A stretch of DNA of 14,420 nt from a virus (Duplodnaviria; Heunggongvirae; Uroviricota; Caudoviricetes). Position 1 is the stretch's first letter. Each line of letters starts with the position of its first letter. The notes beneath the pieces are model-generated. The model made no database searches. It worked only from the letters and a program-made list of their open reading frames with translations, and was not told the origin of the DNA. The translations under genes and the position numbers were made by a program. The DNA lies in the IMG/VR virus record IMGVR_UViG_2574180220_000003, one strand, 5' to 3'. Shown here in pieces: positions 8,828-10,334 of the stretch.

Positions 8828-8934
8828 TATTCATTCTTCCAGATTCCTTTCGGCAGAGCCTTATACTGAAATATACCTGGCTCAGGATATTGTTGAAAAT
8901 ATTATATGTTTGTCAAAAATAAAAGTTCTGTTAA

Positions 8935-9291
8935 GTGTTGATTGAGTGTTTGTTATACGGTCTAATGGTTTTTTCAGCATTAAATATTTATCATTCATAT
9001 GGTGTGGGTAGAGTGAATATTGATGAGGCGTCGGGGTGTTTCATCCTTAGGCAGCGTATTGATATAGTCAATGCAGAACGAGCAAAGGCCTTCAGCCGTT
9101 TGACAGTTTTGTTCTGTACTCCTGATCGTCTTTCGGGAAGAGACGTTATTATTCTGAATAGTGATGCTATACAGAGGGTTTGCGATGAGTTCATGGTGGC
9201 TAATTCAGAATTATTTGCTCTTGTTCAGGAGTACAACAGAATAGCCAGGACCTGTGGTATGGATGAACTTCGGATTACTCATCTGGGGTAG
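8935..9291 (+). CDS. Hypothetical protein in AT-rich cargo locus; start uncertain (GTG 8935, ATG 8965 or GTG 9013)
   Basis: Open frame of 118 codons in AT-rich DNA with no clear SD at any candidate start. No recognisable motif. Confidence 0.3.
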   Translation: MLIECLLYGLMVFSALNIYHSYGVGRVNIDEASGCFILRQRIDIVNAERAKAFSRLTVLFCTPDRLSGRDVIILNSDAIQRVCDEFMVANSELFALVQEYNRIARTCGMDELRITHLG

Positions 9292-9371
9292 ATACATATC
9301 TGGATTATCACCGGTTACGGTAAAAAGTGATTGCTTACTGTTTTTGTGAATGGCATTGCAGCAGCCGGATA

Positions 9372-9458
9372 ATGTCAGTGCTGGCTGACGGTGTGCTGGT
9401 GGCGGGTGTGGTGGTTGCTGCTTTCCCGTTGCTGAAAAAGAAAACGCCAGACTGTTAG
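9372..9458 (+). CDS. Candidate 28-aa hydrophobic small peptide (MSVLADGVLVAGVVVAAFPLLKKKTPDC)
   Basis: Short ORF with a GC-rich hydrophobic core and KKK tail inside an otherwise AT-rich non-coding stretch. Weak RBS. Resembles a small membrane protein or type-I-toxin-like peptide in composition only. Confidence 0.2.
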   Translation: MSVLADGVLVAGVVVAAFPLLKKKTPDC

Positions 9459-9684
9459 CCGGGTATCAGTTAGCGGGAGAAATTTTTAAATACTTCACAA
9501 TTCAGGCGGTTGACTGTTGTCTGGTTTGCGGGGAGTTTGTTAAAAGAAACTGGCATGGTGAATCCCCCTGTGCGGAGGGGCAATCAGCGAGTAGGTATAT
9601 GGGATAATCGCGGATTCAGGTGCTGGTACTGAATTCACCGGGAGGCACCCGGCACCATGCAATGGCACATAGCGCCACTCTCCA

Positions 9685-9715
9685 GCCCCTCTCCGGAGGG
9701 GCTGTTTATATTGAT
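9685..9715 (+). terminator. Intrinsic terminator-like hairpin (gcccctc/gaggggc, 4-nt loop) followed by a T-rich tract
   Basis: 7-bp GC-rich stem then tgtttatattgattttgt. Lies just 3' of the minus-strand ORF 9739-10074 and may also serve a rightward transcript from the 9300-9680 region. Confidence 0.45.
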
Positions 9716-9738
9716 TTTGTCAGATGTGAGTAAACTCC

Positions 9739-10074
9739 TTATGGACTTTGTTGTTTTAGCCCATAAGGACATATTTGCAGAGTGCAACGGTTATTAAAGC
9801 ATTCATTCAATACGTTATCTGTATTTGTAGGGCATTCCTGGCTGTTTTTGATTAAATTCCAGAATGTTTTATTGAATGGTACTACGTTGTAAATGGTTAC
9901 AGGCAGCACTTTGTTATTGAGCATGATGCCTGTGTGAGTCAGTGTAAATATACTTTCAGGAGGTAAGAAAGCATCCGATTGATACCAGATTATTAATTTT
10001 ATTTTACTCCATATGACTGAAAAAGATATTCCGCATGATGGCTGGATAACTGTATCAATCACAATCCACTTCAT
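9739..10074 (-). CDS. Hypothetical protein (111 aa), AT-rich, Cys-containing C-terminal region; function unknown
   Basis: ATG at 10072-10074 (minus strand) preceded by strong SD AAGGAA about 6 nt upstream. AT-rich codon usage unlike the flanking phage genes. Divergent from the nanS-like gene. Confidence 0.45.
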
Positions 10075-10334
10075 TTAGTTTCCTTGTTTATGCCTTGCTG
10101 GTGATGTTCTGAAAAGTATAAATGATATTTTTGATTGTAAACCATAGAGCAGAATTATTTTTCTGATGTTGTTTATTGTTTATTTAAATGCAGGGTGGTT
10201 TATATCTCGTCTTGTAGTTTATCCATGCATATCTGCTTGATGATGAGGTTTTTAATTAAGGTATGGTTTTGTGTTTTTTCTGTATTACATGTCAGGTATT
10301 TTAAAGAATCATTTTTCAGATGGTGGAAAGAACC

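Follow-up and report, generated by a model that had tools for sequence, protein, structure and literature searches.

Organisation and base composition of the locus

The stretch of DNA analysed here (referred to as the window; 14,420 nucleotides, IMG/VR record IMGVR_UViG_2574180220_000003) carries a Q antiterminator gene (positions 6080–6901; Pfam Antiterm, 171 bits) and a DNA methylase gene (7476–8525), both upstream of two tRNA genes on the plus strand. The first of these tRNAs has the anticodon CAU and is of the ileZ type (8575–8650; called Met by ARAGORN and Ile by PGAP in identical DNA), and the second is tRNA-Arg(UCU) (8751–8827). Beyond them lie a reading frame of 92 codons, here termed orf92 (9013–9291, plus strand), a frame for a 43-residue DUF3927 protein (9327–9458, plus strand), an sRNA of the STnc100 family (9524–9713, plus strand) and the gene iraL (9739–10074, minus strand) with its leader and promoter (10075–10141, minus strand). 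The rest of an AT-rich spacer (10142–10334, no strand assigned) leads to the 5′ fragment of a nanS-p-type esterase gene with DUF1737 and SASA domains (10335–11097, plus strand), the start of which can be placed at 10320 or 10335. A preliminary description of this DNA had listed open reading frames, a hairpin, a Shine-Dalgarno sequence, tRNAs and flanking genes, all of which were found at or near the positions given for them. It had also pointed to the gene order typical of stx phages, and the succession of Q, methylase, tRNAs, cargo and nanS-p is indeed present; stxA and stxB are not, and no Stx-like ORF occurs in 8828–10334. A partial 'hypothetical protein' called by PGAP on the minus strand at 9543–9668 is regarded as spurious, because it lies wholly antisense inside STnc100.

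The visibly AT-rich and compositionally foreign character ascribed to the locus is borne out by a windowed GC analysis. The GC content of 8828–10334 is 39.8%, against 48.3% for the whole window and 51–52% in both flanks. Only ~0.1% of all 1507-nt windows have a lower value, and the lowest of them (GC 0.397, start 8854) overlaps the locus. The composition is uneven inside the locus, with 33% GC for iraL and its upstream spacer, 31% for the stretch after the tRNA and 30% for the whole spacer (10075–10334), and with 55% for STnc100 and 52% for the DUF3927 ORF. A moron, as Juhala et al. reportedly put it in 2000, is an autonomous unit that is foreign in composition and brings along a promoter and a terminator of its own. 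At this locus the deviant GC content and a terminator are present, and the iraL promoter has been mapped in strain CFT073, while the rightward unit has only a consensus match for a promoter, with no more such matches in the region than in its shuffles (a 9/12 match at 8893–8920; six matches in the region vs 4.4 ± 1.9 in shuffled sequence).

The leftward gene iraL

The leftward ORF of 111 codons (9739–10074, minus strand) has the good Shine-Dalgarno sequence reported for it, AAGGAA located 5 nt upstream of the ATG. Its predicted product is identical at 111 of 111 residues to IraL of uropathogenic E. coli CFT073 (WP_000871291.1, c1429), and is matched by the NCBIfam model NF007393 'anti-adapter protein IraM' over residues 1–110 (162 bits, cut-off 121) and by phrog_4407 (E 3e-73). 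Identical DNA in RefSeq genomes is named IraM by PGAP. Residues 1–78 match PDB entry 8twd, the solved IraM core, at the level of profiles (E 9e-32). The residues of IraM that contact RssB (10.1101/2023.01.07.523045) are identical in IraL at 10 of 13 positions, comprising all five of cluster I, three of four in cluster II (T13S) and two of four in cluster III (H63N, I64V). The leftward ORF is thus identified as iraL, encoding a predicted RssB anti-adaptor of the IraM family. It had been proposed as a candidate for an undescribed accessory function, a suggestion overturned by the identity of its product to an anti-adaptor that is already characterised.

IraL has been shown to bind RssB and to raise both the level and the half-life of RpoS in log-phase CFT073 (Hryckowian et al., 2014, PMC4045071), and it also raises the RpoS level in Shigella sonnei (PMC4045071). 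Later work has found that iraL expression is higher at 37 °C and that IraL levels are higher in a fur mutant. RssB binding and RpoS stabilisation by the IraL encoded here would follow from this literature on the identical protein. In CFT073 the gene is transcribed from a sigma-70-type promoter, with the 5′ end mapped by RACE (PMC4045071). The mapped end matches the window at 30 of 30 nt (10107–10078), placing the transcription start site at 10107 on the minus strand, 33 nt upstream of the coding region, with a −10 element TATACT at 10120–10115 and a −35-like TTTACA at 10141–10136. From −100 to +33 the two sequences agree at 130 of 133 positions, and one of the three substitutions is at position −1. 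No convincing PhoP box or Fur box was seen upstream of iraL in an inspection by eye; a TGTTTAT TGTTTAT tandem at ~10169–10182 was considered as a PhoP box and rejected, as it does not have PhoP-box spacing. The preliminary description had treated the cargo as Q-antiterminated, which is not supported for iraL, a gene that lies on the opposite strand and has its own promoter, mapped by 5′RACE in uninduced log-phase cells (PMC4045071).

In CFT073 the gene for WP_000871291.1 belongs to the potB prophage, with DUF3927 on one side and a DUF1737 fragment on the other. Its surroundings match those in the window (Q, tRNAs, DUF3927, STnc100, leftward iraL, DUF1737), and the DNA is ~98% identical over 1.86 kb, including the mapped start site and promoter. 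The two prophages differ in that the window has two intact tRNAs vs three in CFT073, and in that the prophage here is far more deleted. The K-12 protein IraM (b1160; PDB 8twd) belongs to the same family, NF007393, is 59.5% identical to IraL and shares its Cys-rich tail. However, homology between the two loci is confined to the coding region, with unrelated flanks, and iraM adjoins e14 and is not in the slot between Q and the lysis genes; a common context of K-12 iraM and the present locus was therefore rejected. Expression of iraM is reported to be induced by Mg starvation, and the mode in which IraL interacts with RssB to differ from that of IraM (PMC4045071).

The STnc100 sRNA

A strong intrinsic terminator had been described at 9685–9715. 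The hairpin is there, at 9683–9704 and followed by a U-rich tail, and it is recognised as the predicted 3′ end of a known prophage sRNA of the STnc100 family (Rfam RF02076; 9524–9713, plus strand). The covariance match covers model positions 1–206 with 132.4 bits against a gathering threshold of 47 (E 1.6e-29), and primers published for STnc_100 of STEC match the window exactly (PMC12370729). The predicted fold has a minimum free energy of −74.6 kcal/mol (z −2.4) and recovers both the multi-branch shape of the consensus and the terminal hairpin, which has nine pairs, seven of them G–C, and an interrupted U-tail (UUUAUAUUGAUUUU). A search by eye found no promoter belonging to STnc100 itself.

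In Stx2 phages a copy of STnc100 lies 75 nt downstream of stx2B, where it overlaps an Hfq-binding sRNA named EcOnc27 or sRNA103 (PMC12370729, PMC12711010, PMC7873438). Eleven copies are present in strain EDL933, and the majority are transcribed (PMC5331693). It is possible, though on balance doubtful, that STnc100 at this locus works only in cis, by terminating or insulating transcription between the convergent units and by anchoring recombination, and is not a trans-acting regulatory RNA. The imperfect U-tail, the occurrence of the element at the end of every cassette examined, with tandem copies at cassette joints, and the state of the literature, in which the family is without a validated target and the proposed links to fimZ/espA and stxB come from indirect or in silico evidence (PMC7873438, PMC12370729), would all agree with a role of this kind. 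Against it, EHEC expresses STnc100 copies abundantly as discrete transcripts, with Northern-blot confirmation for one of them (PMC5331693), Hfq is bound by the overlapping EcOnc27 (PMC7873438), and the copy in the window retains the multi-branch structure with a score well over the Rfam threshold.

The moron site of EHEC prophages is known to hold convergent pairs of Hfq-binding sRNAs, EcOnc27–AsxR and EcOnc06–AgvB, 3′ of PR′ (Tree et al., 2014, PMC4104026). These pairs resemble the window in their position, 3′ of PR′ and the cargo, and in their rightward member, an STnc100-type RNA that ends in a terminator (PMC4104026). They differ in the convergent partner, which is AsxR or AgvB in EHEC and a protein gene, iraL, in the window. 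An anti-sRNA of the AsxR or AgvB type as the partner here was rejected, as an Rfam search at E up to 1 found neither of them, be it opposite STnc100 on the minus strand or elsewhere in the window; in six related loci none was found at gathering level.

The stx slot and its exchangeable cassette

The preliminary description had placed this locus at the moron position of Stx phages, flanked by the late-region tRNAs and nanS-p and used there for stx, and alignment to the Stx2a phage LC567834 confirms this: the flanks align (8400–8835 at 87%, 9495–10600 at 73%), and the 659 bp between them (8836–9494, plus strand) correspond to 1368 bp with stx2A and stx2B in LC567834. The backbone of that phage is as in the window (methylase, tRNAs, cassette, STnc100, leftward IraM-family gene, nanS-p), and the difference is in the cassette, where Pstx2-stx2A-stx2B takes the place of orf92 and DUF3927. 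STnc100 follows directly after stx2B, a leftward IraM-family gene of 107 aa begins 8 nt past STnc100, and nanS-p comes next. By this alignment only 8836–9494 is allelic to stxAB, so that the extent of ~1.5 kb proposed for the slot stands for this segment and not for the remainder. Since an IraM-family gene lies beside stx2AB in LC567834, iraL is placed outside the stx slot, as a neighbour whose presence is compatible with that of stx.

The full arrangement of STnc100, IraM-family gene and nanS-p together with stx2AB was seen in one record, LC567834. The IraM-family gene itself is found in ~40 Stx2 phage records (e.g. phages 2851 and 1717), mostly unannotated there, and is ~72–74% identical to IraL in tblastn local alignments. 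The Stx-phage protein forms a third clade; it agrees with IraL in 78 of 111 aligned columns (70%) and is 65% identical to IraM.

Comparison with the cargo of related prophages shows that the slot can hold stx2AB, an AraC-type regulator with orf92, or nothing. In phi296 there is nothing between the tRNAs and STnc100, other prophages have the AraC-type regulator (PatE/Psr-like) and then an allele of orf92, and some have stacked cassettes with a copy of STnc100 ending each. In each of the related loci examined, the cassette ends with STnc100. We infer that the tRNA-Arg gene (8751–8827), at the left end of the exchangeable segment, and STnc100 act as recombination anchors for cassette exchange. 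The contents seen in these prophages also fit the convergent sRNA genes described in the moron site 3′ of PR′ (Tree et al., PMC4104026).

Distribution and state of the prophage

Parts of the locus occur in 22–26% of complete E. coli genomes. The cassette (8836–9494) is present at a coverage of at least 80% in 1183 of 5426 such genomes, iraL and its promoter region in 1428 of the same 5426, and the whole 2-kb region in 863.

The window itself runs from int, xis, exo, ydfD, dicB and dicF directly into DUF968, rusA and Q. Compared with the CFT073 prophage, ~6.6 kb is missing at ~4675, a segment that includes the repressor, cro-like, replication and hok/sok genes. Compared with strain AR_0069, nanS-p is truncated at 11097, where tail-fibre sequence takes over. 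The window therefore lacks the genes for lysis, packaging and most of morphogenesis. Judged by its gene content, the window is a deleted prophage remnant, and coupling of the locus to induction is for this reason doubtful; no pathway for SOS induction in cis is evident in the window. Induction-coupled expression, as first suggested for the cargo, is thus a weakened reading for a prophage that has lost its immunity, replication, lysis and morphogenesis regions. That the remnant has kept its tRNAs, sRNA and iraL intact may reflect usefulness at the level of the host.

The DUF3927 protein and orf92

A hydrophobic peptide of 28 aa had been noted at 9372–9458. It corresponds to the C-terminal two thirds of the 43-aa ORF at 9327–9458 (plus strand) and does not stand as a separate, unknown peptide. 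Residues 2–43 of this ORF match Pfam DUF3927 (PF13064; E 1.3e-26, 92.7 bits vs a gathering threshold of 25), and the product also matches phrog_1470 ('TciB-like'), with PGAP making the same call on identical DNA. The peptide is accordingly recognised as part of a putative mini membrane protein of a known family, small and hydrophobic, which PHROGs places in the category moron/host takeover.

Upstream of it, the rightward ORF first delimited as 8935–9291 is an open frame, of which only the part from the GTG at 9013 is conserved as coding sequence, giving the 92 aa of orf92 (9013–9291, plus strand). A version of 118 aa was rejected, as the extension is broken by stops in the diverged allele L008 and is absent from remote homologues. 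The two alleles of orf92 share 72% DNA identity and keep frame, length, GTG start and stop. Their dN/dS is 0.27 (dN 0.29, dS 1.08), against 1.16 and 0.91 in the shifted frames, and their differences are distributed over the three codon positions as 24/21/43. Homologues in the database comprise a close group and a group at 56–62% identity, and a profile search of 1.84 billion representatives returned 20 relatives, several of which have 91–106 aa and are 22–41% identical; homologues at 32–41% identity keep a length of 91–95 aa, and five positions are invariant in an alignment of nine sequences. The product matches phrog_2873 (function unknown; E 2.5e-58), and its AlphaFold2 model has two long helices and a short hairpin joining them (pLDDT 84). 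On this comparative evidence, orf92 is a real, conserved gene under purifying selection that RefSeq has left unannotated: the region carries no PGAP annotation in any RefSeq genome examined.

Profile and structure searches, which the preliminary description had proposed for the three ORFs, thus identified iraL and DUF3927 and gave no functional match for orf92. It has no match in Pfam or NCBIfam, and Foldseek searches with its model found nothing beyond generic helical hairpins in PDB and BFVD (E above 0.3). Neither orf92, DUF3927 nor IraL had a hit in PADLOC at E up to 0.1. A marginal PDB profile match to UPF0335/GapR (E 0.04) was rejected because the product of orf92 is net acidic (11 K+R vs 13 D+E).

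That orf92, alone or with DUF3927, encodes a functional, unstudied accessory protein with a new function is in our view unlikely; candidate roles would include, for example, modulation of a host pathway or of superinfection. Somewhat less credit still is due to the more specific proposal that the orf92–DUF3927 cassette has an undescribed function in exclusion, defence or virulence and is expressed from PR′ under Q antitermination on induction. The cassette does lie exactly at the stxAB position on the late strand, orf92 is under purifying selection with no meaningful match in Pfam, NCBIfam, PADLOC, PDB or BFVD, and DUF3927 is hydrophobic and classed with moron/host takeover functions. However, the immunity, replication, lysis and morphogenesis modules are missing, so that no induction pathway is evident in cis, the PADLOC search was negative, and the orf92 family is small, with its 20 representatives. 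In other prophages, moreover, orf92 is found behind the AraC-type regulator gene and not behind the tRNAs, which suggests that it has no tie to late expression. It is more improbable again that orf92 is not a gene and that 8836–9326 is an untranslated leader or promoter for DUF3927 and STnc100 with an accidental frame, as the GTG start, the weak Shine-Dalgarno sequence, the missing PGAP call and the broken N-terminal extension of the 118-aa frame might suggest, given the identity of the 92-codon frame, its start and its stop in alleles so diverged in DNA, the low dN/dS with an excess of third-position changes against values near 1 in shifted frames, the constant length and invariant positions of remote homologues, the confident AlphaFold2 model and the phrog_2873 match.

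A probable two-unit accessory region

The locus is very probably a known, widespread accessory region of lambdoid prophages made up of two convergent units. The identities of its elements, their coordinates and synteny and the selection on orf92 are directly established. In the leftward unit, iraL would be transcribed from its own sigma-70 promoter with a start site at 10107, and IraL would bind the adaptor RssB and so block delivery of RpoS to ClpXP, raising RpoS in growing cells. With its own promoter and a role for RpoS in growing cells, iraL would therefore be a lysogenic-conversion gene and not a late gene.

The rightward unit, in the stxAB slot, would consist of orf92 and the 43-aa DUF3927 membrane peptide and end in the STnc100-family sRNA. 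The three may be co-transcribed as one unit, like stx2AB and EcOnc27 in Stx2 phages. The STnc100 terminator may halt rightward transcription before iraL and shield it from read-through, and any rightward read-through that is Q-dependent or Q-modified would pass iraL in the antisense direction. Read on the minus strand, the terminator hairpin has no U-tract, and iraL transcripts may therefore extend antisense into STnc100. With tRNA-Arg and STnc100 as anchors, cassettes would be swapped by recombination, the alternatives being stx2AB, the AraC-type regulator with orf92, or nothing.

Implications

The region had been described as one of unknown genes. For three of its four elements, iraL, STnc100 and DUF3927, this does not hold, as they are already known; it is right for the function of orf92, the only functionally uncharacterised element and a member of a small protein family of narrow distribution. 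No new biology is needed to account for the locus, because its main gene, iraL, has a published mechanism. If there is an unstudied orf92 protein with a new function, it would be one that is allelic to stxAB and travels with cassettes of the PatE/Psr-like AraC regulator.

The true stx-equivalent cassette is ~660 bp long and bounded by tRNA-Arg and STnc100, which sharpens the reading of this slot in other prophages. There are also two gaps in annotation: RefSeq systematically omits the conserved 92-aa gene, though roughly one complete E. coli genome in five has it, and most Stx2 phage records lack an annotation for the IraM-family gene beside stx2. Genes that stabilise RpoS adjoin the toxin slot and lie next to sRNAs with a previously noted connection to RpoS control in Stx phages, and such RpoS genes at the toxin slot may be of interest for work on how prophages retune the general stress response.

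State of the prophage

As the stretches 1-4675 and 11097-14420 show, the window is a lambdoid prophage with heavy deletions. At its left the gene order runs int-xis-exo-ydfD-dicB-dicF and then passes by a direct junction to DUF968, and the immunity and replication genes, ~6.6 kb in comparison with the CFT073 prophage, are absent. At 11097 nanS-p is truncated and the C-terminal part of a tail fibre is fused to it, a junction spanned by none of the complete E. coli genomes of the collection. Each of the two tail-fibre-assembly (Caudo_TAP) ORFs contains one Rfam IS009 match, at 12845-13043 (+; 224.5 bits) in one and 13889-14092 (+; 112.8 bits) in the other.

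In the early region, DicF sRNA is matched in Rfam at full score (76.7 bits) at 4537-4588 (-). Directly downstream on the same strand, the STnc100 sRNA family gives a match below threshold at 4330-4539 (-; 38.7 bits, gathering score 47), which overlaps the beginning of the dicB region. The prophage of strain AR_0069 (locus L002), whose iraL locus is identical to that of the window, has two genes annotated as anti-phage, iteA and iteS, in the early region (L002 1066-4459); the window has neither.

The interval between the two tRNAs (8651-8750) is a degenerate copy of tRNA-Arg(UCG), which is the middle tRNA in CFT073 and Stx phages; its acceptor and T-arm ends are still discernible, and the anticodon-arm region has been replaced.

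Genes of the cassette slot and its boundaries

The 92-aa gene orf92 (9013-9291, +) is conserved under purifying selection and carried by ~22% of complete E. coli genomes, yet it has no PGAP annotation across the RefSeq genomes examined. The same slot in related prophages has a gene for an AraC-type regulator (HTH_18, 241 aa; 3969-4694 in locus L008 and 2933-3658 in L004) immediately 5' of a diverged orf92 allele, with an IS element between the two genes in L004 to L007. We take this regulator to resemble the PatE/Psr regulators of EHEC prophages.

A third clade of the IraM family, with 70% identity to IraL and 65% to K-12 IraM (global alignment), is found in ~40 Stx2 phage records, which include Stx2c and Stx2a phages (2851 and 1717, for example). 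The gene (L010 5456-5779, -) lies on the opposite strand shortly downstream of stx2B and STnc100, and is without annotation in most of these records.

Within the STnc100 copy of the window, in identical DNA, PGAP calls a partial 'hypothetical protein' pseudogene at 9543-9668 (-); this lies wholly inside the sRNA, antisense to it, and is probably spurious. STnc100 is repeated in L001 (4466-4659 and 4935-5123), L004 (2344-2556 and 5650-5839) and L008 (5352-5547 and 5612-5718). Because each successive cassette in these loci has one copy, at its 3' end, the repeated copies suggest that STnc100 marks cassette boundaries.
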